Assembly (NCBI GenBank): GCA_031266365.1
Contig: JAISBE010000012.1
Span: 445-64,444 of the forward strand
Direction of reading: 5' to 3'
Length of the DNA: 64,000 nucleotides
From: Oscillospiraceae bacterium
Lineage (GTDB): Bacteria; Bacillota; Clostridia; Oscillospirales; Acutalibacteraceae
Shown here: in pieces, positions 8,059-54,459 of the stretch
How the letters are laid out: the number at the start of each line of letters is the position of its first letter
Numbering within the stretch: position 1 is the first letter of the stretch
Translations under genes and position numbers: made by a program
Notes under the pieces: model-generated
What the model was told of the DNA's origin: nothing
Databases searched by the model: none
What the model saw: only the letters and a program-made list of their open reading frames with translations

Positions 8059-8940
8059 TTATGCTTTTAATTCATACAATTCCAACAAACTTAAACTACA
8101 TAAAAATAAAATCTGTTCACGCAGCGTTAATTTGCGATTTTCATCTTTTTTTGACCATTTTTCTATGTTTCGTGCTGCTTTGACCGTGATTTTCTTCAAT
8201 ACATCTTTAGCTTCATCGGAAAGCCCCACAGTATAAATAGAGAAACGACCTTCTGTTTGAGGTTTTGGGTAATCATCTATCCCCATGCCGATCAAAAACC
8301 AATCTGCGTGATACTCACCTGCAGCAGACGACATTCCAGCATAATCGGCGATTAATTCGTCGTGCAAATTATTTTGAGAAGAACCCAAAAAACGCTTTGT
8401 AAAATAATGCGTACATTCATGTTCACGACGAATTATAAGCGAAAAATCTTTCCATTGCTCGTCTTCAAGCCCCAATTTTTGCGCAGGAATGTTGCTATAC
8501 GGCTTATTCGAAAGAATTATGAACCTCGTGGACTTTCCATTCGCAAAACTAGCACCTGTTTTCTCTATGCCTGGAAATTCCTTGCCTTTGTGTATTAATT
8601 TTATTACCAATTCCTCAAAATCTTTAGTATCCGTGGCATAAAATATTGGAATTGGGCCCGCTAAAGAATCATATATTTCTATTTTTACGCCTTCTGGTTT
8701 TTGAAGAACTATATCTTCTTCCCCATGAGATATATTATTGTTTAAAGCAGCCACTATGCCCTGATCTTTTACCTTTTCTATAAAGCTTTTCCAAGCTCCA
8801 ATAAACGGTTCCTCTGCGATTACTTCTGGAATTTGGGGATTTTTACCAAAGCGGTTAGCAGTATAATCAAGTAATTCCTGCAAAATTTCGCCCTTGGCTC
8901 CAATCGCTTCCAATAATTCGCTGCTCTTATCAATTGGCAT
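8059..8940 (-). CDS. hypothetical protein with HExxH motif (putative metallopeptidase-like), last gene of the GG-leader peptide operon
   Basis: 293-aa ORF containing REHECTHYF (H-E-C-T-H). It starts 18 nt downstream of the preceding peptide gene on the same strand. Confidence 0.5.
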   Translation of the reverse strand: MPIDKSSELLEAIGAKGEILQELLDYTANRFGKNPQIPEVIAEEPFIGAWKSFIEKVKDQGIVAALNNNISHGEEDIVLQKPEGVKIEIYDSLAGPIPIFYATDTKDFEELVIKLIHKGKEFPGIEKTGASFANGKSTRFIILSNKPYSNIPAQKLGLEDEQWKDFSLIIRREHECTHYFTKRFLGSSQNNLHDELIADYAGMSSAAGEYHADWFLIGMGIDDYPKPQTEGRFSIYTVGLSDEAKDVLKKITVKAARNIEKWSKKDENRKLTLREQILFLCSLSLLELYELKA

Positions 8941-10245: not shown

Positions 10246-10745
10246 CTTTCACATGCCGTACTTTTCAAAAACTTTACTGAACTTTAGGATATATCATGCA
10301 TAAGAACTATATTTAGCAAACAATTTATTTAATCACTAAATACTGGCATGCTTATTGACCTCCTATTTCTTCATATTAAATTGCGCATCCCATCCTTATT
10401 AATTTTATATGATGAACTTTTTATTTAATTCAGATATCTTTTGCATATATCAACTCAATTTTCAATATTTCCATTTTTATTATATATTATTTGCGAGTAT
10501 ATTGTCAAGTGTTTTATATAAATTATATAAATTATTTTGCTTGTCGAGCCATTAATCTCTTATTTCAAATTTTAATCATTTACTTTAAATCAAAAACAAT
10601 GTAAAATTATATTATAGCCAAGTTTTGTTTATAGTTTACCTTACATATATAAACTACAGCTAAACCAAAAGCACAATAAAAATGTTAAAAATCGCTTTTA
10701 AATTTATTAATAGAAACGATTGCCATGAACAGAAAGTAGGTTTTT

Positions 10746-12311
10746 ATGAGAAAAACTTTCTACATCACAACCCCAATATACTATCCTTCTAATAAAGCTC
10801 ATATTGGACACAGCTACTGCACCGTCGCAACCGATGCTCTAGCCCGATATAAACGTATGCGCGGCTACGACGTAATATTTTTAACAGGCACCGATGAGCA
10901 CGGCCAAAAAATTGAACAAAAAGCTTTAGAAAAAGGCGTCACACCAAAAAATTACGTTGACGAAATTTCTTTGGAGTTTAAAAAACTTTGGAAATTATTA
11001 AATATTTCTAATGATTATTTCATCCGCACAACGGATATTTCGCATAAAAAAACCGTTCAAAAAATTTTTCGCAATCTATATGATAAAGGGGAAATTTATA
11101 AAGGCAACTACAAAGGCTGGTATTGCACGCCATGCGAAACCTTTTGGAAAGAAAGCCAATTGAACGATGCAAAATGCCCTGACTGTCAGCGCGAGGTACA
11201 ATGGGCTCAAGAAGAAGCTTATTTTTTTAAGCTTTCCGACTATTCAGAAAAACTTCTCTCACTCTACGAAAAAAATCCCAAATTTATACAACCGGAGAGC
11301 CGCAAAAATGAGATGATACAATTTATAAAAAGTGGCCTTGAAGATATATGCGTCAGCCGGACTAGCTTTAAATGGGGCATACCAGTGGATTTTGACGAGA
11401 AACACATAGTATATGTTTGGCTCGACGCGCTAACAAATTATATAACAGCTCTTGGCTATACCAGCGAAGATGACTCCACGTTCAAAAAATTTTGGCCAGC
11501 CGATGTACATTTTGTCGGCAAAGAAATTGTGAGATTTCACACAATTATATGGCCTGCTATTTTAATGGCACTAGATTTGCCAATGCCCAAGCAGGTTTAC
11601 GGGCATGGGTGGCTTCTTTTTGGAGATGGGACTAAAATGTCGAAATCCAAGGGCAATGTTGTTGACCCAACTATATTATGCAAACGCTATGGCGTCGATG
11701 CGATCCGTTACTTTTTGCTGCGAGAGATACCTTTTGGTGCAGACGGCCTTTTCACCAATCATGCACTGATAAGCCGTATCAATTCAGACCTCGCCAACGA
11801 CCTCGGCAACCTGCTTTCACGCGCAACTGCAATGATAGAAAAGTACTTTTCAGGGGAGCTTCCAACCGAGCAAAAGGCTGATGTTTTGGATGAAAATTTA
11901 ATTAAGCTTTCTCGAGAGGTCTGCAATTCAGTGGAAAACAGTATGGATGAATTTCAATTTTCTTCTGCGTTATCGGATATTTGGAAATTAGTTGCATATT
12001 TAAATCGATACATCGAAGAAACCGTTCCGTGGAATCTCGCAAAAGACCCCTCAAAGCAAGGTCGCCTTGCCCGGGTACTTTATAATCTTTGTGAAGCCTT
12101 CCGGATAATATCGATTTTGCTGGCACCGTTTCTCCCCGAAACTTCCCAGAGAATACGCGAACATTTATCCTTAAAAAGTTCCACTTTAAGCTGGGGAGAT
12201 GCAAAAGTTTGGGGTTTACTCCCCCAAAATTCAAAAATCAGCAAAACTGAGGCTCTTTTCCCGAGGATTGATATAGAAAAAGAGATTGAAGCGCTGAATA
12301 AACTATTATAA
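10746..12311 (+). CDS. metG: methionine--tRNA ligase (short form)
   Basis: 521 aa with HIGHSY and KMSKS motifs and a Cys knuckle CTPCETF...CPDC. Confidence 0.93.
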   Translation: MRKTFYITTPIYYPSNKAHIGHSYCTVATDALARYKRMRGYDVIFLTGTDEHGQKIEQKALEKGVTPKNYVDEISLEFKKLWKLLNISNDYFIRTTDISHKKTVQKIFRNLYDKGEIYKGNYKGWYCTPCETFWKESQLNDAKCPDCQREVQWAQEEAYFFKLSDYSEKLLSLYEKNPKFIQPESRKNEMIQFIKSGLEDICVSRTSFKWGIPVDFDEKHIVYVWLDALTNYITALGYTSEDDSTFKKFWPADVHFVGKEIVRFHTIIWPAILMALDLPMPKQVYGHGWLLFGDGTKMSKSKGNVVDPTILCKRYGVDAIRYFLLREIPFGADGLFTNHALISRINSDLANDLGNLLSRATAMIEKYFSGELPTEQKADVLDENLIKLSREVCNSVENSMDEFQFSSALSDIWKLVAYLNRYIEETVPWNLAKDPSKQGRLARVLYNLCEAFRIISILLAPFLPETSQRIREHLSLKSSTLSWGDAKVWGLLPQNSKISKTEALFPRIDIEKEIEALNKLL

Positions 12312-13850: not shown

Positions 13851-13915
13851 TAAATTAATATTTGATCAAATAGAAAACTATTATAATTTATAAAAACATG
13901 AAAGGAAGTATACCC

Positions 13916-14500
13916 ATGAACATTAATTTTCGTAAACTCAAAAACTCTTTATTAAGCCTCGGCTTAAGTGCTACCTTATTTTCTGCCTCCGGCCTAAAGA
14001 CGCTTGCTGAGCCGTTATCCCTGAGCTTTGTCAAGCAGCAGCTGAAGGACCTCCTCCCTGCCCCGACGGCGCCCCCTGATGAAATGGCGCGTGGTGTGCG
14101 TCTGCTACTAACGCGTGCGAGCCTATTTACACATGAGGGAGCCCAGCGGCAGGTTAAAGATGCCGATGGTCGAATCAGTAAGACGGAGGAGTGGGCTTCC
14201 GTTGTACGCTTGAATGCCGACACTTTCTACGTTAATACGCATAACTTAGCGAACGTGGCTGGAGTCGCGAAGTCTACGGTGAACGCGCGTCTGAAGGCAG
14301 CAAAAGTAATAAGAGTTTTTCTTACAGAGTCAGATATACGCTATGTGGAGGGGATAGTACCGACTCGCATCAGATCGAACTATTGGAGAAAAAGCACTCT
14401 AACGGCGGCTCCACCCATAGCGGCGCATGCACTGTTTCCCGACAAAGACTCTTCTGATGGCACAACTTGGGAGGAACAATTCGATTTAGCTGATGAATGA
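13916..14500 (+). CDS. cassette protein U1: Sec signal peptide plus GC-rich variable domain
   Basis: AAAGGAAG RBS 7 nt before the ATG. MNINFRKLKNSLLSLGLSATLFSASGLKTLA|EP. The upstream ATG is ACG or out of frame in sister cassettes, so the second ATG is used. Acidic aromatic tail TWEEQFDLADE. Confidence 0.7.
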   Translation: MNINFRKLKNSLLSLGLSATLFSASGLKTLAEPLSLSFVKQQLKDLLPAPTAPPDEMARGVRLLLTRASLFTHEGAQRQVKDADGRISKTEEWASVVRLNADTFYVNTHNLANVAGVAKSTVNARLKAAKVIRVFLTESDIRYVEGIVPTRIRSNYWRKSTLTAAPPIAAHALFPDKDSSDGTTWEEQFDLADE

Positions 14501-14521
14501 GCTGTGAGATGAAAACATCTT

Positions 14522-14542
14522 AATCGGGGGTACCCCCCGATT
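14522..14542 (+). repeat. cassette 3' palindrome (hairpin) after U1
   Basis: AATCGGGGGTACCCCCCGATT, a near-perfect inverted repeat. It is followed by the conserved CTTCACACCCCACCGCATTTAATTTAAATAAAAAATT. Confidence 0.75.
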
Positions 14543-14614
14543 CTTCACACCCCACCGCATTTAATTTAAATAAAAAATTAATATAATTTATAAAAACACG
14601 AAAGGAAGTTACCC

Positions 14615-15274
14615 ATGAACCTTAATTTTCGTAAACTTAAAAACTCCTTATTAAGCCTCGGCTTAAGCGCTACCTTATTTTGCACCGCCGGCCTGGCCGG
14701 AGTGCCCGCTTCAGCTAACGACCCGAACCCAGAGGCAACCAGTGCGTACCAACGGAAGGTAGTAACTATGCAGTACCGGAGCACAGCCGAGGGCGGAGAG
14801 TTTGCCAACCTGTCCGACTGGTTACACCAAGTCACAGACATGTCCACAGAGGCCAGAGAACAGGGAGCTGAGGTGGGCATATACTGGCAGGTCCGCGACC
14901 AGGTACTGTGCCTGAACTCGCAGATCCTGGCGGGCGATTTAGGTATTAAAGTTAACACGCTGAATAAACGACTGAAAGGGACATGCGGTCCGGCGCAGCC
15001 CTTAACGGTAGCACAAGTGAAAGAGATGGGGTACGCGAAACCAAGGAGCTGGTGCAAACGCGCTTTTTGGCCCAAGCGCACGACCCGCATGGTCGAGCCG
15101 CCGACGGCAGCGTGGATTCAAGGACCCGGGGCAAGCCTCGGCCGCCTGGCGACCGCCATCGCTGCCCCTGCACCGGCGCAACCGTTAGCCCCTCCGGTCT
15201 GTATCAGCCCTCAAATTGAAGATCATGATACGGACGGTTTGAATGACTGGGATCCTGACTTTGGATGGACTTGA
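14615..15274 (+). CDS. cassette protein U2
   Basis: MNLNFRKLKNSLLSLGLSATLFCTAGLAGVPASA|NDP. GC-rich body. Tail DWDPDFGWT. Closest paralogue is U3. Confidence 0.7.
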   Translation: MNLNFRKLKNSLLSLGLSATLFCTAGLAGVPASANDPNPEATSAYQRKVVTMQYRSTAEGGEFANLSDWLHQVTDMSTEAREQGAEVGIYWQVRDQVLCLNSQILAGDLGIKVNTLNKRLKGTCGPAQPLTVAQVKEMGYAKPRSWCKRAFWPKRTTRMVEPPTAAWIQGPGASLGRLATAIAAPAPAQPLAPPVCISPQIEDHDTDGLNDWDPDFGWT

Positions 15275-15288
15275 CCCTGAAAAATCTT

Positions 15289-15309
15289 AATCAAGGGTAC
15301 CCCCCGATT
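15289..15309 (+). repeat. cassette 3' palindrome after U2 (imperfect)
   Basis: AATCAAGGGTACCCCCCGATT, in the same position relative to the conserved tail. Confidence 0.65.
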
Positions 15310-15381
15310 CTTCACACCCCACCGCATTTAATTTAAATAAAAAATCATTATAATTTATAAAAACACGAAAGGAAGTTACCC

Positions 15382-16071
15382 ATGAACCTTAATTTTCGTA
15401 AACTTAAAAACTCCTTATTAAGCCTCGGCTTAAGTGCTACCTTATTTTGCACCGCCGGCCTGGCCGGCTTACCCGTTTTCGCTACCGACCCGAACCCAGA
15501 GGAAACCAGGGCGTACCGACAGACTGTAAAAGCTATGCTGTACCCGCGCACACCCACGGGCGTACAGTTTGACACCATGCAAGACTGGTTACACGGAGTA
15601 GCGGACGTGTCCACAGTGGCCAGAGCGCGTGGGGCTGTGGTGGGCATATTCTGGCGGGTCCCAGGTAGGGAATTGTGCCTAAACAAGCATATCATGGCGA
15701 GCGATTAAGGTCTTAAAGTTAACACGGTGGCGAAACGACTGAAACTGGTTAGATCCGGTCCGGCGCGTCGCTTACCGGTAGAACTCGCGATAATGCTGGG
15801 TGGCGCGAACCCAACGCACTGGTCCCGCCGCGCTTTCTGGCACGAGCCAAGACCCCCCGTGGGCGTGACACAAGCGGCAAACGGGGAAGCACTAGCCGAG
15901 GCGAGCCAAGGCCCGCTCGCGATACCACGAGCGGCCAATGCATCGGCAACAGCGTTAGCCCTTCCTGCCTCTACCAGCCCTGAAATTCAAAATTATGACT
16001 GGGATCTCGACGATACACCCTTTAGAGAGTACCCTGACCCGCATGACGACGCGGACGACTTTTGGCGCTGA
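15382..16071 (+). pseudogene. cassette U3, interrupted by one in-frame TAA (15706-15708)
   Basis: The two track ORFs (15382..15708 and 15727..16071) are in the same frame. U2 has GAT TTA GGT ATT AAA GTT AAC where U3 has GAT TAA GGT CTT AAA GTT AAC. Confidence 0.65.
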
Positions 16072-16167
16072 GCCGGGTCGGTCACGGCACCCTGGTGGAC
16101 TAACTGCGTAAGTGCCGGCAGCACGCCCAACCACCGGACTGGGATAAGCTTGAAAATGAAACATCGT

Positions 16168-16189
16168 AATCGGGGGTACCCCCACGATT
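16168..16189 (+). repeat. cassette 3' palindrome after U3
   Basis: AATCGGGGGTACCCCCACGATT. Confidence 0.7.
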
Positions 16190-16262
16190 CTTCACACCCC
16201 ACCGCATTTAATTTAAATAAAAAATTATTATAATTTATAAAAACATGAAAGGAAGTATACCC

Positions 16263-16982
16263 ATGAACATTAATTTTCGTAAACTCAAAAACTCTTTATT
16301 AAGCCTCGGCTTAAGCGCCACCTTATTTTGCACCGCCGGCCTGGCCGGCTTACCCGTTTTCGCTACCGACCCGATACGCGAAGTGGCCTTAAGGGAATGC
16401 GTTATCGGAATCGGAAGGGGGGCAATCAGGTACAGCCGCGGAAAGGCTAGGGCCGTATTTGTAGCTATTGTGAATCAACTAGTAAACCTTGCGTCAGTGG
16501 CTGCCAAGCGTGGAGTCATCGGTCCAGATGGACGGCCAGTGCCGCTACATTGCGTACTACCACTAATCCCGCTGGGACGCGGCGCATTCATGGTGCATAC
16601 ACAACTGCTAGCTGAGGTCGCGAAGGTAAGTAAATCTTCGGTTAACTCAAACTGGTGCGCAATAGGTTATAACAGCTCAACGCCGACTCCCGCGCAGATA
16701 GCACAACTAGAGATGCAACCACACCAGTGTCGGAGCTGGACGGTCCGCACGCTACGGACACCCGAATCTACCGGCGAACCGGAGGTCCACGCCGACGAGG
16801 CGCACACGGATGCTCCGACAAGCACACCAGGGGGATCCTTCGCGCAGGCTGACTGGCCGGAACTCTCGCTACCCGAGCAACCCGAGGGCTACGACCCATT
16901 AGCAGACACAGACACTGGGAGCGGCGAATACGGCTTTTTTGAACGTGACGTCGCTACCGAAGACCAAAGGTGGCTTTTTTGA
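16263..16982 (+). CDS. cassette protein U4
   Basis: MNINFRKLKNSLLSLGLSATLFCTAGLAGLPVFA|TDPIRE... Paralogue of U5. Contains ...SKSSVNSNWCAIGY...CRSWTVRTL. Confidence 0.7.
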   Translation: MNINFRKLKNSLLSLGLSATLFCTAGLAGLPVFATDPIREVALRECVIGIGRGAIRYSRGKARAVFVAIVNQLVNLASVAAKRGVIGPDGRPVPLHCVLPLIPLGRGAFMVHTQLLAEVAKVSKSSVNSNWCAIGYNSSTPTPAQIAQLEMQPHQCRSWTVRTLRTPESTGEPEVHADEAHTDAPTSTPGGSFAQADWPELSLPEQPEGYDPLADTDTGSGEYGFFERDVATEDQRWLF

Positions 16983-17065
16983 CCTTGCCGTCGCTCCCGA
17001 CGACCCTTGGCCTGTACTTAGTCCCAGTGGTTCAAAAGAACCCTTTTAAATGAAAAATTGTAATC

Positions 17066-17079
17066 GGGCGCTCTCGCCC
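17066..17079 (+). repeat. cassette 3' hairpin after U4 (different sequence, same position)
   Basis: GGGCG-CTCT-CGCCC followed by ATTTTTCACACCCAACCGCATTTAATTTAAAT. The stem sequence is replaced but pairing is preserved, and a T-run follows. Confidence 0.6.
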
Positions 17080-17155
17080 ATTTTTCACACCCAACCGCAT
17101 TTAATTTAAATAAAAAATTATTATAATTTACAAAAACATGAAAGGAAGTATACCC

Positions 17156-17884
17156 ATGAACCTTAATTTTTGTAAACTTAAAAGCTCCTTATTAAGCCTC
17201 GGCTTAAGTGCCACCTTATTTTGCTCCAGCCTGGCCTGCTTCCACGTTTCCGCTAACGACCCGATACGCGAAAAGGATTTAAGGGCACAACTTATCGAAC
17301 TCAAAAGAAAAGCCGCGCCAGTCAAGTATCAGCGCGGACGGGCTGGGGCCGTATTTGCAGCTCTTTGGAATGAACTACTAACAATTGCGAATGAGGCTGC
17401 CGCGAGTGGAGTCATAGATGAAGCCGGAAGGCCAGTGCCGCTGCATACCGTACTATCACTAATACGGCTGGGGCCGACAGCATTCGCAATGAACACACCC
17501 GCCCTAGCGAAGGACTTAGGGAGAAGTAAATCTTGTGTTAACAACCAGTTGTGGAAACTAGGTTATACCAGCTCTCCGCTGACTACCGAGCATATGGCAC
17601 AACTAGGGATGCGACCACACCAGTGTCGGAGCTGGACGGTCCGCACGCTCTGCCCACCCGAAAATACCGGCGAAGATGGGGGCTCTGCCGACGAGGCACT
17701 CACGAGTAATCCCCCAGAATCAACCGGCGACTCCTTCGCGCCCGCTGAATGGCCGAGACTATCGCTACCCGATCGACCCGCGGGCGCGGGCCGCTTGGCA
17801 CTCACAGACACTGGGCGAGGCGACGGTGGCTTTTTTGCCCTTGACCATGCTCCAGCCGGCGCCAGCTGGTTTGACCTTTACTGA
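17156..17884 (+). CDS. cassette protein U5
   Basis: MNLNFCKLKSSLLSLGLSATLFCSSLACFHVSA|NDPIRE... Contains LAKDLGRSKSCVNNQLWKLGY...CRSWTVRTL. Tail ASWFDLY. Confidence 0.7.
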   Translation: MNLNFCKLKSSLLSLGLSATLFCSSLACFHVSANDPIREKDLRAQLIELKRKAAPVKYQRGRAGAVFAALWNELLTIANEAAASGVIDEAGRPVPLHTVLSLIRLGPTAFAMNTPALAKDLGRSKSCVNNQLWKLGYTSSPLTTEHMAQLGMRPHQCRSWTVRTLCPPENTGEDGGSADEALTSNPPESTGDSFAPAEWPRLSLPDRPAGAGRLALTDTGRGDGGFFALDHAPAGASWFDLY

Positions 17885-17904
17885 GCTTAGGAATGAAAAA
17901 TCTT

Positions 17905-17925
17905 AGCCGAGGGTTACCCCCGATT
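17905..17925 (+). repeat. cassette 3' palindrome after U5 (degenerate)
   Basis: AGCCGAGGGTTACCCCCGATT followed by CCTCACACCCCACTGCATTTAATTTAAAT. Confidence 0.55.
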
Positions 17926-17997
17926 CCTCACACCCCACTGCATTTAATTTAAATAAAAAATCATTATAATTTATAAAAACACGAAAGGAAGTTACAC

Positions 17998-18603
17998 ATG
18001 AACCTTAATTTTCGTAAATTCAAAAGCTCTTTATTAAGCCTCGGCTTAAGCGCTACCGTATCTTTCGGCTTCGGCCTACCCGGCTTCCACGCTTTCGCCA
18101 TTGATCCAATACCGACCACGCGGGGCGCCTGGAGGGCCGCGTTGTTGAGCGTGAGGCGATACCACGAGCCGGGCAAGAGAGGCAACCACGCTGAAAAGGC
18201 CGATACCAAAGCGCGGTGGCTTAGGCTGGTGGCATTGGCGCCCGGGCCCGAAGGCAATGAAATACTTGGTGCGGACACAGGTGTCGTAGAGCTCGGTGAC
18301 GGGTTCATCCTAATAAACTCGCGACTAGTGGCAAAGAACTTGGGGCGAAGTAAATCGTGCGTCAACGGACTCCTGGCGGAGCTAACTTACGAAAGACAAC
18401 CGATAGCTGGTGAGCACAGGCAAGTGTTGCGCGGGCTCACGAAAAAACCTCGTGAGTGGTCTCTGCGCAAAATCAAGCCGCAAGGCGCGCAGGACGGGGG
18501 CCGAGCCACGACCCACTCGCCCGATACTAGACCTTTCAACCCTGATCAGGACGGCGCGCCTACATGGGATCCTGTCGATGACTGCGACTTTGATGAGATC
18601 TGA
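17998..18603 (+). CDS. cassette protein U6
   Basis: MNLNFRKFKSSLLSLGLSATVSFGFGLPGFHAFA|IDP... Contains LVAKNLGRSKSCVNGLLAELTY...PREWSLRKI. Tail WDPVDDCDFDEI. Confidence 0.7.
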   Translation: MNLNFRKFKSSLLSLGLSATVSFGFGLPGFHAFAIDPIPTTRGAWRAALLSVRRYHEPGKRGNHAEKADTKARWLRLVALAPGPEGNEILGADTGVVELGDGFILINSRLVAKNLGRSKSCVNGLLAELTYERQPIAGEHRQVLRGLTKKPREWSLRKIKPQGAQDGGRATTHSPDTRPFNPDQDGAPTWDPVDDCDFDEI

Positions 18604-18611
18604 ACAGTCTT

Positions 18612-18633
18612 AATCGGGGGTACCCCCACGATT
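18612..18633 (+). repeat. cassette 3' palindrome after U6
   Basis: AATCGGGGGTACCCCCACGATT followed by CTTCACACCCCACCGCATTTAATTTCAAC. Confidence 0.7.
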
Positions 18634-18705
18634 CTTCACACCCCACCGCATTTAATTTCAACAGAAAATTGTTATAATTTATAAAAAAATGAAAGGAAGT
18701 TACAC

Positions 18706-19860
18706 ATGAAACTTAATTTTCGTAAACTTAAAAACTCCTTATTAAGCCTCGGCTTAAGTGCTACCTTATTTTGCACCGCCGGCCTCGCCGGCTTACCCGT
18801 TTTCGCCGAGGGACCTGCCACAATGGATGAGTGGCGCGAAGCGATACTACGCATCCTGGCCGGGATGCCAGAGTACTCTGCGCGGGGGAAGGACGCAGAA
18901 GCCCGCACATCCACTCTGTTGCACAACCAACTGGCAGTGAGCCGACAAGCACTAGCAAACGGCGTGAAACCACCCCTGCAACCAGTGGAAGGGGGGTTCA
19001 CGATCCACTTGTCGGCATTCGCGAGATACACCGGCATTACCGAACGCCAAGTGGAAAGGCAGCTAGTACGCGGAGGGGCACACTTAGCCGGGCGTGGTGA
19101 TGGCTACTGGAGCTGGTACACACTAGTGTCGGTGGACGACGGTGCAGGTCGCGCGGAAGGCGACATAGTTGAAGCCACCGCCGTTCCTCCCATGGTTGAC
19201 GATCGTGGCCAATTGGAAGTCCAGGTAATAGAAAAATACAAGAAGCTGGAACCAAATTTAGCACTACGCAAGACCGCACGGGGAGAGAACCACCGTCAGT
19301 GGCTGAGAGATTTAATCACGATATCGGAAGAAACCCTCGAGCATGGACAGCCGGACCTAGCGACCGTCGTATTACTGGGCGACGGAACCTCCCTCGCTGT
19401 AAACGCGGGCGCGTTGAGGCGTTTGACTGGTATCTGCAAATCGGCGACGAATTACCGCTTACAAGCCGAGGGACTCCACAAACGCAGCTTAGCGGACGCC
19501 AGCGAGCTGGACGCACGCTTTGGGAGACCATTAGGTTTAGCGGACCGCCGGCACTGGGAAGTCTGGACACCCACCCCGCCCGCTGCGATCGACTATTCTG
19601 AAAAAGATAATCCCTGGTTAACCAGGGCCTTTACGGCCGCGAACTGGTCGCGCCGACCCGGGGAACAACCAGCCATCGCGAGAGGGACGGACGGCAAAAC
19701 CCTATGGGTACGGGTCGAGGAGCTCAGCCGAAAATTAGACACAACGGATCTTGACGTTATGAGGCACCTTGAAAACTTGGGGTACCGGCTCACGGGAACT
19801 AAACAGTGCCGGCTCGCCACAGGTGAAGAAGTGGCATTGACGATCTGGGCACAGCGTTAA
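18706..19860 (+). CDS. cassette protein U7 (largest, about three internal HTH-like repeats)
   Basis: MKLNFRKLKNSLLSLGLSATLFCTAGLAGLPVFA|EGP... 384 aa. Three segments of the form hydrophobic strand, helix, turn, helix: FTIHLSAFARYTGITERQVERQL, SLAVNAGALRRLTGICKSATNYRL and TLWVRVEELSRKLDTTDLDVMRHL. Confidence 0.7.
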   Translation: MKLNFRKLKNSLLSLGLSATLFCTAGLAGLPVFAEGPATMDEWREAILRILAGMPEYSARGKDAEARTSTLLHNQLAVSRQALANGVKPPLQPVEGGFTIHLSAFARYTGITERQVERQLVRGGAHLAGRGDGYWSWYTLVSVDDGAGRAEGDIVEATAVPPMVDDRGQLEVQVIEKYKKLEPNLALRKTARGENHRQWLRDLITISEETLEHGQPDLATVVLLGDGTSLAVNAGALRRLTGICKSATNYRLQAEGLHKRSLADASELDARFGRPLGLADRRHWEVWTPTPPAAIDYSEKDNPWLTRAFTAANWSRRPGEQPAIARGTDGKTLWVRVEELSRKLDTTDLDVMRHLENLGYRLTGTKQCRLATGEEVALTIWAQR

Positions 19861-19988
19861 GAACGAAGTTGCACCCCCCGACGACCGCCCCTGGAGCCAG
19901 CGGTGGTGCCTTGGACCCGGCAAATCAGCTTGGGTTCTTCGAACATCAAGACAACGGAAATTCTCAATGAGCCTTGGCATTAAAAAAT

Positions 19989-20014
19989 CTTACCCGGGGG
20001 TGCATCCTCCGATT
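19989..20014 (+). repeat. degenerate cassette 3' element after U7 (first of two)
   Basis: CTTACCCGGGGGTGCATCCTCCGATT followed by CTTAACATCCCACCACATTTAATTTAAG. Recognisably homologous to the tail block but decayed. Confidence 0.5.
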
Positions 20015-20097
20015 CTTAACATCCCACCACATTTAATTTAAGACGACCACACACACCTGGTACGGCGAGGCGCGTGAACGGTGAGATGAAATATCGA

Positions 20098-20118
20098 AAT
20101 CGAGGGTTACCCCCGATT
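20098..20118 (+). repeat. cassette 3' palindrome (second copy after U7, precedes the U8 head)
   Basis: AATCGAGGGTTACCCCCGATT followed by CTTCACGCCCCACCGCATTTAATTTAAATAAAAAATT. Confidence 0.65.
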
Positions 20119-20190
20119 CTTCACGCCCCACCGCATTTAATTTAAATAAAAAATTATTATAATTTACAAAAACATGAAAGGAAGTTACAT

Positions 20191-20952
20191 ATGAAACTTA
20201 ATTTTCGTAAACTCAAAAACTCCTTATTAAGCCTCGGCTTAAGCGCCACCTTATTTTGCAGCTCCGGCCTGGCCAGCTTACCCGTTTTTGCTGAACCTGT
20301 AGTACTATCTGCTCTCAATATGCGTCTAGACGAAAAGAAGAAGCACTGGAGCGACTTTGACGTGGATAGCATGGTGAACACTGAACTGACATATACAGAG
20401 GAGCTGTTAGCCCATGGGGCAGTTGATGAAAAAGGTATGTGGAGTCCCGGTGAAGGGCACCTCGCCGTCGTATACGTAGGTTCTGGAGTTGTCGCAATTA
20501 AGATACAGACGTTATCAAAAAGGGCGGACAGAGCTAAAAGTCGATTAAACAAGGTACTTGCTTCTGCAGGTTATACCCCTTTAACACCGACTGAGGGTCA
20601 CAAGCACATCCTAGCGTCACGACTAAAAGTAAACCCACATGACAGATCTTTAGTGTCCTGGTCGTTCCGAATCAAACCGGATCGCCGCGCGGACGCAGAC
20701 AGGGCATCTAGTGACGCTGAGGCTACGGATGACCCTGCATTACAATTCCCAAGATTAGCAGAGGAACCAGCAGATGCTATGATTTTTTCCAGAATGCAAG
20801 GCGAAGCTACACAGCACGTCTTGCAATTTGGCCAGGGTGATTTAAGGCCGCACCCGGCCAAATTTGTTGCACCAGCTTCTGAGGACCGGATTATTGTTAG
20901 ATGCAGTAAAGACAGGATCCCCGAATGCGCATGCTGCTATCGCGTTGACTGA
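20191..20952 (+). CDS. cassette protein U8 (terminal, less GC-rich, no conserved tail element)
   Basis: MKLNFRKLKNSLLSLGLSATLFCSSGLASLPVFA|EP... The body is visibly less GC-rich than U1-U7. The array ends without the palindrome block. Confidence 0.65.
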   Translation: MKLNFRKLKNSLLSLGLSATLFCSSGLASLPVFAEPVVLSALNMRLDEKKKHWSDFDVDSMVNTELTYTEELLAHGAVDEKGMWSPGEGHLAVVYVGSGVVAIKIQTLSKRADRAKSRLNKVLASAGYTPLTPTEGHKHILASRLKVNPHDRSLVSWSFRIKPDRRADADRASSDAEATDDPALQFPRLAEEPADAMIFSRMQGEATQHVLQFGQGDLRPHPAKFVAPASEDRIIVRCSKDRIPECACCYRVD

Positions 20953-27480: not shown

Positions 27481-29892
27481 TTATTTAACCACTATGTTTA
27501 CTAACCTACCTTTCACATAAATTTCTTTAATTATATTCTTTTCAGCGATAGCCTGCACAACTTTTTCGTCTCGCTTAGCCAAACAAATAGCCTCATTTGC
27601 CTCCAGAGAAGCTGCAATTACTTTACGCGACTGAATTTTACCATTCACTTGCAAGGCTATCTCTATAAAATCATCTTTACATTTTCCCTCATCGTAAGCC
27701 GGCCACTTCCTTTGAAGGCCTAAGCACACTTCATCGCCTGCAACACTATGCCAAACTTCTTCCGTGATATGCGGTGCAAAAGGATATAGCAATAATGTGA
27801 AAATCTTCAGCTCTTCTTTAGTTATACTTCCTAAAGTATAAATTTCATTGATCAAAGCCATAAGCGCTGCTATCGCCGTATTAAACTTTAGCGCCTCTAT
27901 ATCTTCTGTTACTTTTTTTATTGTTTTATGAAAATTAGATGACAATTCTTCTCTTACAAAATTTTTTTCCTCTATAATATTTTGAAGATTCCAGTATCGT
28001 TCCAAAAAATGCCTGCAGCCTTTTATTCCCGCCGCATTCCAAGGAGCTGCTTTTTCGTAATCCCCAATAAACATTTCATATAATCGCAAAGTATCTGCCC
28101 CATACGCCTCAATAACGTCGTCTGGGTTCACAACATTTCCTCGCGATTTACTCATTTTTTCGCCACTTTCACCCAATATCATCCCATGGCTTGTACGCTT
28201 GGTGTATGGTTCCGGAGTTGGCACTATTCCTATATCGAACAAAAATTTGTACCAAAATCGGCTATAAAGCAGATGCAAAGTTGTGTGCTCCATTCCACCA
28301 TTATACCAATCAACGGGCAGCCAATGCTTTAGAGCACCCATTCCTGCAAATTCTTCGCTATTCTTAGGATCAATATATCTCAAAAAATACCACGATGAAC
28401 CGGCCCACTGCGGCATTGTGTCCGTTTCTCGCTTTGCGCTTCCGGCACATTTAGGGCAACTCGTGTTCACCCAATCCTCGACCCCGGCAAGTGGCGATTC
28501 CCCAGTAACAGCGGGTTCATATGATTCTATTTTGGGAAGTTTTAACGGCAACTCTGATTCAGGCAGTGGGACATATCCACACTTTTCGCAATAAACAATA
28601 GGAATAGGTTCGCCCCAATAACGCTGCCTAGAAAATACCCAGTCGCGCAGTTTATAGTTTACCTTTTTCTTCCCTTTATTATTACTTTCAAGCCAATTTA
28701 TCATCATAAGCTTAGCGTCGTTGACACCAAGACCGTTTAAAAAACCAGAATTTACTATTACGCCTGAGTTGCAATCAGTGAACGCCTGCTTATCGATATC
28801 TCCACCGGCAACCACTTCTATCTTCGGTAAATTAAATTTTTTCGCAAATTCAAAGTCCCTTTCATCATGTGCCGGCACTGCCATTATCGCGCCTGTACCA
28901 TACGATGCGAGAACATAATCTGAAATAAATATGGGAATTGCAGTCCCTGTTACAGGATGTATAGCAAAAATATTTTCCAGCTTAATTCCCGTCTTTTCCT
29001 TCGCAAGTTCAACCCTTTCAAACTCAGATTTTTTCGCCGCTTGCGTTTGATAGTTCTTTAAATCTTGCAAATTGCTTATTTTATCTTCCCATTTAGAAAG
29101 AATTGGGTGTTCCGGAGACAAAACAAGATAGGTCGCTCCAAAAAGAGTATCCGGGCGCGTGGTATAAATTTCGATATTATCTCCACCGCTGACCTGAAAC
29201 TTTACTAAAGCACCTTCTGAACGGCCGATCCAATTACGTTGCTGAGCTTTAACGCGTTCCGGGTAATTAACCAAATCGAGGTCTTTAATCAAGCGTTCAG
29301 CGTACTCAGTAATTTTGAGCATCCACTGCGATTTAATCTTTTGAATAACTTCACTGCCGCACCGTTCGCACGCACCTTTCACCACTTCTTCATTTGCCAA
29401 CACGCATCTACAAGAAGTGCAAAAGTTTACAGCCATTTCCTTTTTATACGCAAGATTGTGTTTAAAAAGCTGTAAAAAAATCCACTGCGTCCATTTGTAG
29501 TACGAAGGGTTAGTTGTATCAACTTCCCTATCCCAATCAAATGAGAGTCCAAAAGCCTTTAACTGTCTCCTAAAATGCGTAATGTTATTTTTCGTGACAA
29601 TTTCAGGGTGGATGTGATTTTTTATAGCGTAATTTTCCGTTGGGAGCCCAAAAGCGTCAAAGCCTATGGGGTATAGCACATTATACCCCATCATACGGCG
29701 CTTCCTTGCAACCACATCCAGCGCAGTATAAGGCCTTGGATGGCCCACATGCAAGCCTTGACCAGAAGGATACGGAAACTCGACTAAAGCGTAAAATTTC
29801 GGAGCAACTGAATCATCGCGAGCACAGAAACATTTGCTTTCTTCCCATATTTTTTGCCATTTATTTTCTATGATTTTGTGATTATATTTCAA
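27481..29892 (-). CDS. leuS: leucine--tRNA ligase
   Basis: 803 aa with HVGHPR (HIGH) and [11 protein letters not shown] start. Confidence 0.95.
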
Positions 29893-30051: not shown

Positions 30052-30354
30052 TTAATAAATTATTGGCGATGCGCTTATTAAGTTGCCATTATGCACTTCA
30101 TAAGAGTATAACGTGCGTTCATCTTGCATAAAGTGCATACCAAACGTTAATGATACAGACCCTTTCCATACATCTGCTATTTTTTCTAAAAATTTTTCAA
30201 CTGTTATATCGCTAAGACATTGAATTTCTACAACATCTCCTGACGGCAATTCTACACGCACACTAATTTCTTTACCCTTACCTGGGTCCACTCCACCTAT
30301 AACCAATTCTAACTCCTCTTCGCTAAGAGCAATCAACTCTCCTTGTTTTAGCAA
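30052..30354 (-). CDS. GG-leader ubiquitin-like protein, copy 4 (divergent)
   Basis: TTG start after AAGGAAGGGGGGG. (M)[20 protein letters not shown]|VDPGKGKEISVRVELPSGDVVEIQC... It has lost the RL(R/M)G C-terminus and ends ...ISASPIIY. Confidence 0.65.
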   Translation of the reverse strand: MLKQGELIALSEEELELVIGGVDPGKGKEISVRVELPSGDVVEIQCLSDITVEKFLEKIADVWKGSVSLTFGMHFMQDERTLYSYEVHNGNLISASPIIY

Positions 30355-30445
30355 TTTTATCCCCCCCTTCCTTAATTTTTTTAACACTAATTATAAGCGA
30401 CTTGCTGATCAGAATTAACTAATATCAACTCACATTAAGCTTTAG

Positions 30446-30757
30446 TCAACCCATCAGCCGCAATAGTTGATGTATAGTGCTATCACGCTCCACACCACAA
30501 CTGCTTAACGTATCGACGTCTTCCAGTTGCTTTCCTTGAAATACTAATCTTATGCCATCACCAACTATGCCATAGCACTTTGCTATTAGTTTTTTAAGAT
30601 CCATAACTGTCATCGAACGCCCACAAGTAAACGATGCAGTTTTTCCTGTTGTCAATATTATAAAAACCGTAATATTGTCATCCTTATCTGGGTTCGCTCC
30701 ACCTATAACCAATTCTAACTCCTCTTCACTAAGAGCAACTACTTCTTGTTTTATCAA
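30446..30757 (-). CDS. GG-leader ubiquitin-like protein, copy 3
   Basis: Start trimmed to the TTG at 30757, giving the same 312-nt length as copies 1 and 2. (M)[19 protein letters not shown]|ANPDKDDNITVFIILTTGKTASF...RLVFQGKQLEDVDTLSSCGVERDSTIHQLLRLMG. Confidence 0.75.
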   Translation of the reverse strand: MIKQEVVALSEEELELVIGGANPDKDDNITVFIILTTGKTASFTCGRSMTVMDLKKLIAKCYGIVGDGIRLVFQGKQLEDVDTLSSCGVERDSTIHQLLRLMG

Positions 30758-30841
30758 TTTTATCCCCCCTTCCTTAATTTTTTTAACACTTATCAACCAC
30801 ACTGCCAAAATCAACACGTTTTAACTTTCATTAAACTTTAG

Positions 30842-31153
30842 TTAACCTCGCAACCGCATCATCAGATGTATAGTGCTATCACGCTGCACACTATAACTGG
30901 CTAACGGAAACCCATCTTCTAGTTGCCGTCCTGCGAATGTTAACCTAACTTGCTCAATTGGAATACCCTGGCAATTTGCAATTATTTCTCTAAGCTCTCT
31001 AACTAACATGCCATCAGTGAAAAGAACCCTTTTATGATCTCCTGTTAATAATTTTACATATATAAACGGTTTATCCGCATCTGGATCCTTTCCGCCAATA
31101 ACCAATTCTAACTCCTCTTCGCTAAGAGCAATCAACTCTTCTTGTTTTATCAA
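30842..31153 (-). CDS. GG-leader ubiquitin-like protein, copy 2 (most ubiquitin-like)
   Basis: (M)[20 protein letters not shown]|[24 protein letters not shown]...[43 protein letters not shown]. Compare ubiquitin: MQIFVKTLTGKTITL...[43 protein letters not shown]. Confidence 0.8.
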
Positions 31154-31246
31154 TTTTACCCCCCTTCCTAAATTTTTTTAACATTAACTCATTATAAGCG
31201 ACTTGCTGATCAGAATTAACTAATATCAACTCACATCAAACTTTAG

Positions 31247-31558
31247 TCAACCCATCTGCCGTAATGCCGCAAATACAGTGCCATTTGCCACAACACTATC
31301 TCCTAAAACTTGACCATCTATTAGTTGCTTCCCACTGCATGTTAACCTTATCGCCTCCACGGGAATTCCAGGGAGTCCTTCTGCTACTTTTGCTATTAAA
31401 TCATTAACTGTCATGCCTCTATTAACCCTCATCAGCTGTGGTTTCCCTTGAAACTTTACAAATATTTGAATTTCTTCACTTCCAGCTGGATCCACTCCAC
31501 CTATAACCAATTCTAACTCCTCTTCACTAAGAGCAATCAACTCTTCTTGTTTCATCAT
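31247..31558 (-). CDS. GG-leader ubiquitin-like protein, copy 1
   Basis: [21 protein letters not shown]|VDPAGSEEIQIFVKFQGKPQLMRV...GIPVEAIRLTCSGKQLIDGQVLGDSVVANGTVFAALRQMG. The ATG lies 1 nt after the yqeK stop. Confidence 0.78.
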   Translation of the reverse strand: MMKQEELIALSEEELELVIGGVDPAGSEEIQIFVKFQGKPQLMRVNRGMTVNDLIAKVAEGLPGIPVEAIRLTCSGKQLIDGQVLGDSVVANGTVFAALRQMG

Positions 31559-31559
31559 T

Positions 31560-32159
31560 TTATATCTCCCTAAATTTTTTTAACACTAATTCATTATATG
31601 CAGCTATACTACCAGGATCAATTGGTAGATTTTTACTTAAAAGTTCGCGAATTGTGTACTTTAAACCAGATCTCATAGCTTTTTCCAAACTAATTGTAGC
31701 ATCTTCCCTAATTCTGTCAACATCTCCGTAATTTCTATCTTTTGAAGTAAAATCCGCTACAAAAACAATTTTTTCGAGCAAAGACATTCCACCTCGAGCA
31801 CTCGTGTGATATCGAATCGCGTTGTAAATGTCGATATCTTTGATATGTAAAACATGTTTTACATACGCACTGCCGGTGATAGCATGCCAAAGTTTAAAAG
31901 ACTTTTTTTCTATATCAGTTAGTATTATACCAAAGCGATTTAAAATTTGCAAGTGTTCTTCTCGAGGAGCCTCTTTAAAAATATCATGTAAAATACCGGC
32001 AATTTCTGCTTTTTGAGGATCCATTCCATATCTCTTTGCAAGCCTTTTTGCCTCATTTGCAACATTCAAAGAATGCTTGAATCGTTCATTACTCAAGCGA
32101 GATTTAACAATTTTTATGCAAGCTATAAACACATTGTCACTATTACCTTTCCCCATCAT
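31560..32159 (-). CDS. yqeK: HD-domain phosphohydrolase, YqeK family
   Basis: RFKHSLNVANEAKRLAKRYGMDPQKAEIAGILHDIFKE (HD motif). 199 aa, typical YqeK length. Confidence 0.72.
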   Translation of the reverse strand: MMGKGNSDNVFIACIKIVKSRLSNERFKHSLNVANEAKRLAKRYGMDPQKAEIAGILHDIFKEAPREEHLQILNRFGIILTDIEKKSFKLWHAITGSAYVKHVLHIKDIDIYNAIRYHTSARGGMSLLEKIVFVADFTSKDRNYGDVDRIREDATISLEKAMRSGLKYTIRELLSKNLPIDPGSIAAYNELVLKKFREI

Positions 32160-32366
32160 GGTTACACCTCTCTCATTAATTAAATTAACCCAGCTATAAA
32201 TGGCAAACTGGTCAAATGATATGAGAATCAGATTTGATTTTTTCTTTAATGATTTTCTACAATATAAAAATACCCGAATTAAAATGCATCGACAAATTAA
32301 CTCAGATATAAAACTGTATTTAATACTATATTAAAACTATGAACATAGATTTTTTATTTGCCAATT

Positions 32367-32708
32367 TTATATTAACTCTATTATCGCCATTTCTGCCGAA
32401 TCGCCACGCCTCGGACCTATTCTACTTATGCGTGTATATCCTCCTTTTACATCAACATATTTTGGGGCAATTTCGTCAAATAATTTTTTAACAACACTTC
32501 CCTTTGTCAAAAAAGACATCGCTCTGCGCCTATTGTGCAGATTCGCCACTTTCGCGTCAGTAATAACCTTTTCAACTAATGAACGCACCTCTTTAGACCG
32601 TGTAATAGTGGTCTCAATTTTCCCATTTTCTAAAAGAAAAGTAACCATCGCCCTTAGCATGGCTATTCTATGGGCAGTAGCTCGACCTAACTTCCTTATT
32701 CCGGCCAT
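32367..32708 (-). CDS. rplQ: 50S ribosomal protein L17
   Basis: [21 protein letters not shown]... Follows rpoA. The ATG has the better RBS spacing. Confidence 0.93.
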
Positions 32709-32805
32709 CACAATTCACCTCTTTAAATCTTTCTATACAACCATAAATAAATTAAAACTAATAACATGCCTTTGATCAAATATTTAATAACAGCTTTCTA
32801 ATAAT

Positions 32806-51771: not shown

Positions 51772-51795
51772 ATGAATACCACGCCACGTAACTAA
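51772..51795 (+). CDS. microcin C-like heptapeptide precursor (MccA-like): MNTTPRN
   Basis: ATG AAT ACC ACG CCA CGT AAC TAA. AAAGGAG RBS ends about 10 nt upstream. C-terminal Asn as in E. coli MccA (MRTGNAN). Lies directly upstream of the MccB-like gene. Confidence 0.7.
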   Translation: MNTTPRN

Positions 51796-51804
51796 AATTT
51801 CAAA

Positions 51805-51832
51805 GCTTCCTGACTATTATATGTCAGGAAGC
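51805..51832 (+). terminator. stem-loop between the heptapeptide ORF and the adenylyltransferase gene (attenuating terminator or stabiliser candidate)
   Basis: GCTTCCTGAC-TATTATAT-GTCAGGAAGC, a perfect 10-bp stem 9 nt after the stop codon. No clear T-tract follows. Confidence 0.55.
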
Positions 51833-51894
51833 CACTTGTAGTTAAATCTCAAAAAAATATTAGGCAATAAGAAAACAAACAGGAGGGCAAATCT

Positions 51895-52962: not shown

Positions 52963-52982
52963 TTAAAAAGGAGGGTTTAAAA

Positions 52983-54445: not shown

Positions 54446-54459
54446 AATTAGGTGAGTTT

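Follow-up and report, generated by a model that had tools for sequence, protein, structure and literature searches.

Why would a bacterium keep four genes for a eukaryotic protein in a row, each behind a peptide that resembles the leader of a bacteriocin? This question is raised by an array of four head-to-tail open reading frames (ORFs) that occupies positions 30052–31558 on the minus strand of a 64,000-nt stretch (hereafter the window) of contig JAISBE010000012.1 from an Oscillospiraceae bacterium (assembly GCA_031266365.1), and lies there between yqeK and leuS. The original prediction read them as tandem fusions of a double-glycine (GG) export leader with ubiquitin, and this was confirmed by ORF reading, Pfam and Foldseek. 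Taken as a whole, the interpretation that the array represents lineage-specifically amplified, eukaryote-derived ubiquitin genes, whose products are cargo of a GG export route and act as antagonists, has in our judgement roughly an even chance of being right; ubiquitin probably became here a secreted weapon or a host-directed factor. The four genes, with their scores for the Pfam ubiquitin family PF00240, are:

31558..31247, minus strand: c1, ATG start, 103 aa, leader at 31496–31558, core end ...LRQMG, PF00240 25.6 bits; NCBI entry MDR1253914.1, 'ubiquitin family protein'
31153..30842, minus strand: c2, TTG start, 103 aa, leader at 31091–31153, core end ...MRLRG, PF00240 54.9 bits; NCBI entry MDR1253913.1
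30757..30446, minus strand: c3, TTG start, 103 aa, 20-aa leader at 30698–30757, core end ...LRLMG, PF00240 58.6 bits; identical to P0002, which is NCBI entry MDR1253912.1
30354..30052, minus strand: c4, TTG start, 100 aa, the most diverged copy, with an intact leader at 30292–30354 and the tail ...SASPIIY, PF00240 14.2 bits; identical to P0004, which is NCBI entry MDR1253911.1, 'ubiquitin family protein'

Each precursor of about 103 aa is composed of a leader of 20–21 aa, a linker of 8–9 aa made of Asp, Pro and Lys, and a ubiquitin core. The ATG codon of c1 lies one base past the yqeK stop. The TTG starts of c2–c4 are supported by the ribosome-binding site AGGAAGGGGGG found 5–7 nt upstream, by the alignment with the ATG of c1 and by the same starts in the NCBI entries (P0002 and P0004). 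In the program-made ORF list c3 was extended to a GTG at 30817 and c4 to position 30387; the longer GTG-initiated variants (123 and 111 aa in the JGI calls) were rejected as true genes, since their additional N-terminus is a translated copy of the yqeK tail together with the ribosome-binding site. All four proteins are deposited as MDR1253911–14 under the heading 'MAG: Oscillospiraceae bacterium' (MAG, metagenome-assembled genome), and two of them had already been named 'ubiquitin family protein' by PGAP.

Judged by sequence comparison and by a structural model, the cores are true ubiquitin homologues with the fold kept, as the original prediction had proposed; Pfam, phmmer and Foldseek agree in this respect. 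The PF00240 search that it had suggested gave scores above the Pfam cut-off (gathering threshold, 25.4 bits) for c1, c2 and c3 and below it for c4. In phmmer searches against PDB sequences, residues 31–103 of c3 were aligned with residues 3–75 of ubiquitin (E ~1e-11 per single domain), and the c3–ubiquitin alignments were free of gaps as far as they were printed. Among the array copies c2 was used for the suggested fold test: its AlphaFold2 (AF2) model has a predicted local distance difference test (pLDDT) score of 70 overall, 79–88 in the core and less than 50 for residues 1–14, and the top 50 Foldseek hits in PDB are all ubiquitin (probability 1.00, target-normalised template modelling (TM) score 0.7–0.8, 43–47% identity). 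Identity to human ubiquitin comprises 40% for c1, 45% for c2, 43% for c3 and 22% for c4. Buried positions 3, 5, 15, 17, 23, 26, 30, 43, 50, 56, 61 and 67 stay I, L, V or F in every copy, including c4, which lost the ubiquitin tail and conservatively kept the hydrophobic skeleton. The strings quoted in the original prediction, among them IQIFVK of c1, are exact.

The surface and the tail behave differently, as is seen from the comparison of seven complete paralogues, i.e. c1–c4 and three genes of a sister species (u1–u3) described below. The Ile44 patch (L8/I44/H68/V70), Lys48, Lys63 and most other lysines are variable, with T/T/V/T/T/Y/I at the position of Ile44. Cysteines, one to three per protein, occupy non-equivalent positions, and a C-terminal Cys is not conserved. 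Copies c1–c3 and u1 end at Gly75 (RQMG in c1, RLRG in c2 and RLMG in c3), the tails of c4, u2 and u3 are unrelated, and the conjugation tail Gly75-Gly76 is present in none of the seven. Since the cores end at Gly75 or earlier, activation and conjugation of the E1/E2 type are impossible for them. The stretch R/K72-x-x-G75 is nonetheless kept in four paralogues out of seven and Arg42 in five.

By every sequence criterion the N-terminal peptide is a double-glycine leader. It starts as M(M/I/L)KQ(E/G)E(L/V)(I/V)... and has L-12, S-11, E-8, L-7, V-4, G-2 and G-1 in all four window copies; the predicted pattern of V, L, L and L at -4, -7, -12 and -15 with GG at -2/-1 was correct, and the predicted length of 21 aa held for c1, c2 and c4, with c3 being one residue shorter. 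Pro at position +3 of the linker is invariant. The N-terminus of the leader is acidic (pI, isoelectric point, 4.1) and has no hydrophobic core, so that it does not qualify as a Sec signal cleaved by signal peptidase I (SPI). These features coincide with the consensus of transporters of the ATP-binding cassette (ABC) type that contain a peptidase (PCATs), L(-12)XXXE(-8)L(-7)XXXXG(-2)G(-1), known for leaders of 15–30 aa with a hydrophobic residue at -4, in which Leu-12 together with Leu-7 makes up a 'hydrophobic knot' on the C39 domain, while the residue at -4 modulates specificity (PMC6959990). NCBIfam gave sub-threshold matches on leader residues only, namely with the leader parts of the CTB bacteriocin, lichenicidin A2 and LSEI_2386 bacteriocin-like families. 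A six-frame regular-expression scan of the window found this leader type only at c1–c4. The scan of 185,579 GTDB species genomes with LSEEELExVxGG revealed at least 119 loci, with about one chance hit expected by our estimate. Among the matches listed, the ORFs are overwhelmingly short and bacteriocin-like or similar to RiPPs (peptides made on ribosomes and modified after translation), i.e. the leader is followed by a hydrophobic, Gly-rich or Cys-rich peptide, and their hosts are Clostridia, Coriobacteriia, cyanobacteria and others. In 8 of these at least 119 loci there are ORFs matching C39 and ABC motifs; Pfam was applied to two of them and showed Peptidase_C39, ABC_membrane and ABC_tran together in both.

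After direct homology searches had given nothing beyond the locus, relatives were sought by synteny with YqeK. A 2.1-kb JGI contig (L122) of a sister species, whose YqeK is 80% identical, was found to carry three complete ubiquitin genes (u1–u3; PF00240 37.5, 43.9 and 46.6 bits) and the start of a fourth behind yqeK. Their leaders, all of 21 aa, are diverged (MPDGKEVLKLSDEALSAVIGG, MIHEKEILELSNEALSAVTGG, MPDEKENSKLNSEALSAATGG), and their ends ...KLSDEALSAVIGG, ...ELSNEALSAVTGG and ...KLNSEALSAATGG keep L-12, L-7 and GG, with V at -4 in two of them, A in one, and Glu shifted to -9. Invariant columns in the alignment of seven paralogues are M1, E6, L(-12), E(-9), L(-7), G(-2), G(-1) and Pro(+3), and there is no invariant column in the ubiquitin core of the two species. 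The confinement of invariant columns to the leader and one residue shortly behind it strengthens the GG-leader reading. The same disproportion is seen between the window copies, where leader DNA is 88–94% identical and core DNA only 45–61% (22–42% for protein). In terms of sequence, such combination of a constant leader with variable cargo is the pattern of multi-precursor bacteriocin/RiPP loci served by a single transporter.

The spacers preceding c2–c4 each hold a copy of the last 35–60 nt of yqeK, including TATAAT and the ribosome-binding region, and the array therefore grew by tandem duplication in place. A promoter-like site TTGATC-17-TATAAT was registered by the promoter scan at 31621–31593, inside the 3' end of yqeK. 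The elements concerned, defined for the spacers by the alignment of four upstream regions, are:

31560..32159, minus strand: yqeK, HD-domain phosphohydrolase (Pfam HD), the upstream flank, whose 3' end contains the ribosome-binding site of c1
31154..31246, minus strand: 5' module of c2, a spacer with AGGAAGGGGGG and a copy of the last 35–60 nt of yqeK
30758..30841, minus strand: 5' module of c3, a shorter variant
30355..30445, minus strand: 5' module of c4
27481..29892, minus strand: leuS, the downstream flank; LeuS is 70% identical to the product of an ORF in L123, the next relative considered

In L123 (YqeK 70% identical) leuS follows directly behind yqeK after 145 nt, and this is an empty site; in more distant relatives the gene order is nadD-yqeK-rsfS-leuS. 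In the window lineage (31560–32800 compared with L124–L127) yqeK follows rplQ, and rsfS is absent from the yqeK–leuS interval. With rsfS gone and yqeK placed behind rplQ, the neighbourhood was therefore rearranged before the insertion or along with it. The first ubiquitin gene was thus inserted beside yqeK and then duplicated in tandem, while selection or gene conversion kept the 5' module of spacer and leader near-constant and the cargo diversified.

Wider searches confined the family to these genes. An exhaustive profile search (five-sequence alignment, 1.84 billion representatives) returned as the best 150 hits only eukaryotic polyubiquitin-type multi-domain proteins and was hence uninformative on other fusions. 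A search of GTDB genomes, JGI metagenome contigs and IMG/VR with the family alignment found no relatives and missed L122 as well as L001, a contig described in the next paragraph, their samples being apparently outside the collection. When 5.8 billion proteins were searched by word index, c2 and a c2/c4/u1–u3 profile serving as queries, the GG leader was found only in the seven known members; beyond these, the matches comprised a few ubiquitin-domain proteins of protist-like character and P0284, considered below. The hidden Markov model (HMM) of the ubiquitin core had no match among six-frame ORFs of the 119 listed GG-leader loci of GTDB species representatives, and tblastn against phages gave no match. 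The family is thus very rare, being present in two species and in three or four datasets of MAG or metagenome contigs.

Eukaryotic affinity of the cores is the sole point in favour of an assembly chimera or eukaryotic contamination, the probability of which is negligible. The yqeK–c1 junction is common to three independent assemblies: besides the window, it occurs in L001, a JGI metagenome contig from sample 3300042612 with 99.7% identity over the 1307 nt that cover yqeK-c1-c2-c3, and in a Logan assembly (L121, SRR14710922), which matches at 100% over 10.65 kb and ends at window position 31507 inside the leader of c1, the place where a repeat would break a short-read assembly. The sister species has its array at the same site. 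Ribosome-binding sites and TTG starts are bacterial, and GC content of the array (0.37–0.41, with 0.28–0.32 at third codon positions, GC3) matches that of the flanking genes and the window mean of 0.379. The locus is real and bacterial, and is no assembly artefact. L001 differs from the window by four single-nucleotide polymorphisms (SNPs) in 1307 nt; both SNPs in yqeK are synonymous and both in the c2 core are non-synonymous (P65Q and S88G, window positions 30892 and 30960), which is anecdotal.

Fast divergence of the cores, the aberrant tails of u2 and u3 and the loss of the tail in c4, together with its sub-threshold Pfam score, might also be expected if the genes were decaying, functionless relics of a eukaryote-to-bacterium transfer. 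However, all eight frames of the two species are open and have retained ribosome-binding sites, buried core residues show only conservative changes in each of the seven complete paralogues, the leader consensus is invariant across species with 20% divergence in YqeK, and in GC and GC3 the genes have become fully like the host genome. Decay is, therefore, a poor explanation, to which we ascribe only a slight probability.

Could the proteins work inside the cell as ubiquitin-like modifiers or sulfur carriers served by an E1-like enzyme, with the N-terminal peptide used for some other purpose? Single C-terminal Gly in four paralogues out of seven and the presence of a ThiF-family gene 20 kb away would fit this assumption, but three tails of the seven are without terminal Gly, the conserved GG leader is left unexplained, and neither E2 nor JAB genes were found among the window ORFs scanned. 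Genes for E1, E2 and JAB proteins are also absent within ~10 kb upstream and ~8 kb downstream of the array. Thus, both the lack of neighbouring E1, E2 and deubiquitinase (DUB) genes and the argument against a conjugation system, put forward in the original prediction, were borne out. The sole ThiF/E1-family gene of the window, at 51895–52962 and ~20 kb from the array, encodes an end-to-end homologue of MccB (E. coli MccB, PDB 3h5n, E 2e-73), and this alignment rules it out as the missing E1. It stands behind a MccA-like ORF and ahead of GNAT and ABC-2 exporter genes, in a microcin C-like cluster that is complete and unrelated to the ubiquitin genes:

51772–56227, plus strand: the whole microcin C-like cluster
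51772–51795, plus strand: 7-aa MccA-like ORF MNTTPRN with the ribosome-binding site AAAGGAG and a hairpin behind it
52917–53630, plus strand: GNAT gene behind the MccB homologue
53627–56227, plus strand: genes for an ABC-2 permease, an ATPase and a permease, constituting an ABC-2 exporter

An intracellular modifier is, in our opinion, very improbable. Operons of the Bil/Bub, CBASS Cap2 and 6A/6E types do contain beta-grasp proteins, and this is what they share with the array, but they have E1, E2 and JAB genes beside the beta-grasp gene, whereas the array has none of these and combines true ubiquitin homologues with an export leader and no conjugatable tail. The beta-grasp proteins of those systems are not known to have close sequence identity to ubiquitin.

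Leader-dependent export of ubiquitin-fold proteins appears likely from the sequences. A PCAT encoded elsewhere in the genome would bind the leader through its C39 domain and cut after GG, exporting mature proteins of 8.7–9.4 kDa, and the linker would keep the cleavage site clear of the fast-folding domain. Outside the cell these proteins would act by binding rather than by conjugation. The cavity of PCAT1 has a volume of ~15,000 cubic angstroms, its natural cargo comprises 66 aa, and there is no cargo-specific binding site in it, specificity being provided by the leader only (PMC6959990). The size of mature products (79–83 aa, ~10,700–11,600 cubic angstroms, pI 4.8–8.1) is compatible with a cavity of this volume. 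Folded cargo also has parallels, since GG-leader precursors with SH3_3 cargo of ~70 aa (Pfam 41 and 34 bits) were found in two uncultured Clostridiales MAGs (L066 1591–1878 and L106 1380–1661), so that, to judge by these sequences, small folded domains do occur behind the same type of leader in gut Clostridia. A 730-aa ABC exporter in which no C39 domain was detected is encoded near the first of them.

What, then, would the exported proteins do? The closest precedents, which are also the sole secreted ubiquitins from bacteria studied so far, are BfUbb and BoUbb of Bacteroides fragilis and B. ovatus. Like the array, they represent a eukaryote-type ubiquitin of a gut bacterium with an N-terminal export signal (PMC3352274, PMC5705921, PMC11467351), have no Gly-Gly and no E1/E2 partner, and act by binding, as is proposed here. 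BfUbb was first considered as host-directed and inhibits ubiquitination in vitro even though it lacks GG (PMC3352274); both proteins turned out to be antibacterial (PMC5705921, PMC11467351) and bind an essential periplasmic peptidyl-prolyl isomerase (PPIase) after SusCD-mediated import (PMC11467351). By analogy, an antibacterial role against related bacteria, with each paralogue having its own specificity, may be assumed, and we give it somewhat less than an even chance; that a surface PPIase of the PrsA type serves as the analogous target is speculation. Interbacterial antagonism is slightly favoured over a eukaryote-directed role because of the BfUbb/BoUbb precedent, the classical bacteriocin route, the diversifying paralogues and the microcin C-like cluster on the same contig.

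There are several observations that weigh against exported antagonists. No C39/PCAT gene is present in the 64-kb window, where the HMM built from eight ORFs with C39 and ABC motifs (two verified with Pfam) matches only generic ABC ATPase domains in the six-frame translation, and neither a C39 domain nor a membrane domain of the PCAT type. Since a PCAT-like ABC gene lies within 8 kb in only ~15 of the 119 listed leader loci, this absence is weak evidence against export. No immunity-like small membrane ORF occurs in or beside the array. The C-terminal disulfide that BfUbb and BoUbb possess, and that is crucial for their toxicity (PMC11467351), has no counterpart in it. Mature proteins are globular, and neither cationic nor hydrophobic as class II bacteriocins are. 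Both producer and target of BfUbb/BoUbb are diderm, while the array belongs to a monoderm Oscillospiraceae, to which the uptake and target logic of those proteins (SusCD, periplasmic PPIase) cannot apply as such. Retention of R/K72-x-x-G75 and Arg42 is not obviously needed for an antibacterial role. A GC-rich island of secreted proteins resembling an initiator-binding domain (IBD), in combination with the existence of symbiotic Oscillospiraceae, points to a eukaryotic target. Finally, the family comes from MAG and metagenome contigs of two species, as genes alone.

The last but one of these points makes it necessary to consider the island, which is a compositional outlier in the window:

13898–20952, plus strand: IBD island, GC 0.50–0.57 versus 0.30–0.40 in the flanks, seven or eight tandem paralogues

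Its products have a hydrophobic N-terminal Sec-type signal, MNLNFRKLKNSLLSLGLSATLFC..GLAGLPVFA, recognized by eye, which does not vary over its first ~20 residues. Seven paralogues were aligned, and three of them reach 27–33 bits (cut-off 25) with the Pfam family IBD (PF10416), the initiator-binding domain of Trichomonas. In Foldseek the AF2 model is matched best by IBP39 of T. vaginalis (1pp7/1pp8; probability 1.0, target-normalised TM score 0.55). This hints at an association with parabasalid protists. Like the ubiquitin array, the island is designed as a constant secretion module with variable cargo. One of its copies (15382–16071) is apparently frameshifted, and neither Pfam nor NCBIfam gives a match for the largest paralogue (18706–19860, plus strand, 384 aa).

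If the bacterium is protist-associated, the array may encode eukaryote-directed effectors, i.e. non-conjugatable look-alikes that would be decoys for ubiquitin-binding proteins, E1 or DUBs or would inhibit them, and in the case of an intracellular monoderm PCAT export would place them straight in the host cytosol. The ubiquitin tail up to Gly75 and Arg42 matter for recognition by E1 and DUBs. Both are retained in a good part of the paralogues (four and five of seven, respectively), with the stop before G76, and the cores themselves derive from eukaryotic ubiquitin. BfUbb's inhibition of ubiquitination, also exerted without GG (PMC3352274), and the secreted IBD-like paralogues on the same contig favour this possibility as well. 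So do the Oscillospiraceae endosymbionts of termite-gut parabasalids, whose genomes contain many genes for eukaryote-like proteins that bear signal peptides (PMC10579323). However, the double-glycine route has so far been tied to bacteriocins, RiPPs and pheromones (PMC6959990, PMC7018657), the recognition surface is not conserved (Ile44, L8, V70, K48 and K63 vary), and the window encodes both an antibacterial microcin C-like cluster and a full set of cell-wall and division genes, neither of which one would expect from an obligate endosymbiont living in seclusion. With 27–33 bits and TM 0.55 the assignment to IBD is weak, and the literature search on sample and accession identifiers gave no habitat. 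On balance we consider the eukaryote-directed role rather unlikely but still a serious competitor, and the island and the symbiotic Oscillospiraceae make it stronger than the original prediction, which left the choice between toxin and mimic, had allowed. A more specific scenario, in which the PCAT route of a protist-associated, possibly intracellular Gram-positive symbiont delivers diversifying ubiquitin decoys into a parabasalid beside Sec-secreted IBD mimics, is somewhat more doubtful still; if true, it would be the first case of effectors sent through a leader-peptide ABC exporter against a eukaryotic ubiquitin machinery.

Parabasalid endosymbionts deserve comparison in their own right. 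These Clostridia share with the array host low GC content, affiliation with Oscillospiraceae, independently acquired eukaryote-type regulatory domains and paralogue expansions (PMC10579323). About half of the proteins reported there have secretion signals, and the genomes encode Rab GTPases, kinases, Myb factors and UCH and RING domains (PMC10579323). In the one supplementary file searched, ubiquitin is named only as part of UCH (ubiquitin C-terminal hydrolase), and there are no IBD, PF00240, double-glycine or C39 entries. The array and the IBD island may flag an undescribed protist-associated Oscillospiraceae lineage.

Export may also serve neither a toxin nor a host effector, and the products may instead work as pheromone-like signals, belong to the matrix, mediate adhesion, or act as decoys for proteins of phages or predators. 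GG-leader cargo does include signalling peptides (PMC7595303, PMC7018657), other GG-leader cargo of 70–105 aa with unassigned function occurs in gut Clostridia and Selenomonadaceae, and the absence of an immunity gene beside the array is in line with such functions. At least four fast-diverging paralogues per genome are, however, more readily explained by an arms race than by a signal whose receptor is fixed, and there is no cognate sensor kinase nearby. We assign a low probability to this group of functions.

Comparison with known systems shows that secreted ubiquitin and GG cargo are each known. What is new, as far as the literature and sequence searches reach, is that the two are fused, that the array consists of several diversified copies and that its host is a monoderm. 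BfUbb and BoUbb are exported by a 28-aa SPI/Sec signal rather than by a double-glycine leader of 20–21 aa; they are single-copy, in contrast to at least four diverged tandem paralogues, have 61–63% identity to ubiquitin instead of 22–45%, and belong to a low-GC island, whereas the array is a compositionally adjusted insertion between housekeeping genes. With PCAT substrates (class II bacteriocins, lanthipeptides, ComC/BlpC and CtA) the array shares leader length, acidity, L-12, S-11, E-8, L-7, V/I-4 and GG (PMC6959990, PMC6363468, PMC7018657), as well as several near-identical leaders with divergent cargo and a cargo size within reach (66 aa for CtA). Their cargo is, however, a small hydrophobic, cationic or Cys-rich peptide and not a complete autonomously folding eukaryote-type domain, and the array differs from them also in having no transporter, immunity or modification gene nearby, and in the invariant Pro at +3 and acidic linker past the cleavage site.

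The original prediction, which knew of no such case in a Firmicute, has to be corrected with regard to secreted ubiquitin. The megaplasmid pRUMAL01 of Ruminococcus albus 7 encodes in single copy a 246-aa 'ubiquitin family protein', WP_013483628.1 (L128 11917–12657; NC_014824.1 387760–388500), with a Sec-type signal (MKTKRLLAAGMALTMITSVCTLTANA, by eye), a ubiquitin domain 88% identical to the human one (PF00240, 106 bits) without Gly-Gly, and a C-terminal part of ~145 aa; its neighbours include proteins with PI-PLC domain and dockerin. High identity of the domain to human ubiquitin suggests that this acquisition is recent. No publications on WP_013483628.1 were found in the literature searched. 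The array resembles it in belonging to Oscillospiraceae, in placing ubiquitin behind an N-terminal secretion signal and in lacking Gly-Gly, and differs by its GG leader, by the absence of the ~145-aa extension and by being multi-copy. A similar organization is observed in P0284 (171 aa, 14 member sequences from JGI/ENA metagenomes), with signal-like MRYILFIVGLLVLAQPAFA, a ubiquitin domain (PF00240, 88.6 bits) and a C-terminal domain. Capture of ubiquitin and its fusion to a secretion signal seem, thus, to have been repeated in gut bacteria with a different signal each time, and the array would be the third independent route to secreted bacterial ubiquitin, after the SPI signal of Bacteroides and the Sec-type signal with C-terminal extension of R. 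albus. Taken together, the three routes suggest that bacteria of gut ecosystems have repeatedly found a use for ubiquitin as a secreted scaffold. The GG-leader/PCAT cargo would be extended to a complete fast-folding eukaryotic domain, which bears on the folded structure tolerated and on heterologous secretion, and four (or eight) natural variants of one scaffold behind one leader would offer a system for specificity tests on bacterial or eukaryotic targets.

The surroundings of the array are those of a housekeeping region, as had been predicted from yqeK upstream and leuS downstream. On one side lie yqeK, rplQ, rpoA and other ribosomal genes, the ~10 kb upstream being the region of ribosomal proteins, secY, adk and rpoA, and on the other side leuS is accompanied by an M24 peptidase gene and efp. 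The Rfam scan of the window registered two tRNAs only, none of them in the array or upstream of leuS. Pfam scans, which covered most of the larger window ORFs, show housekeeping genes, and a DUF7005 protein (240 bits) is encoded at 8059–8940 on the minus strand.

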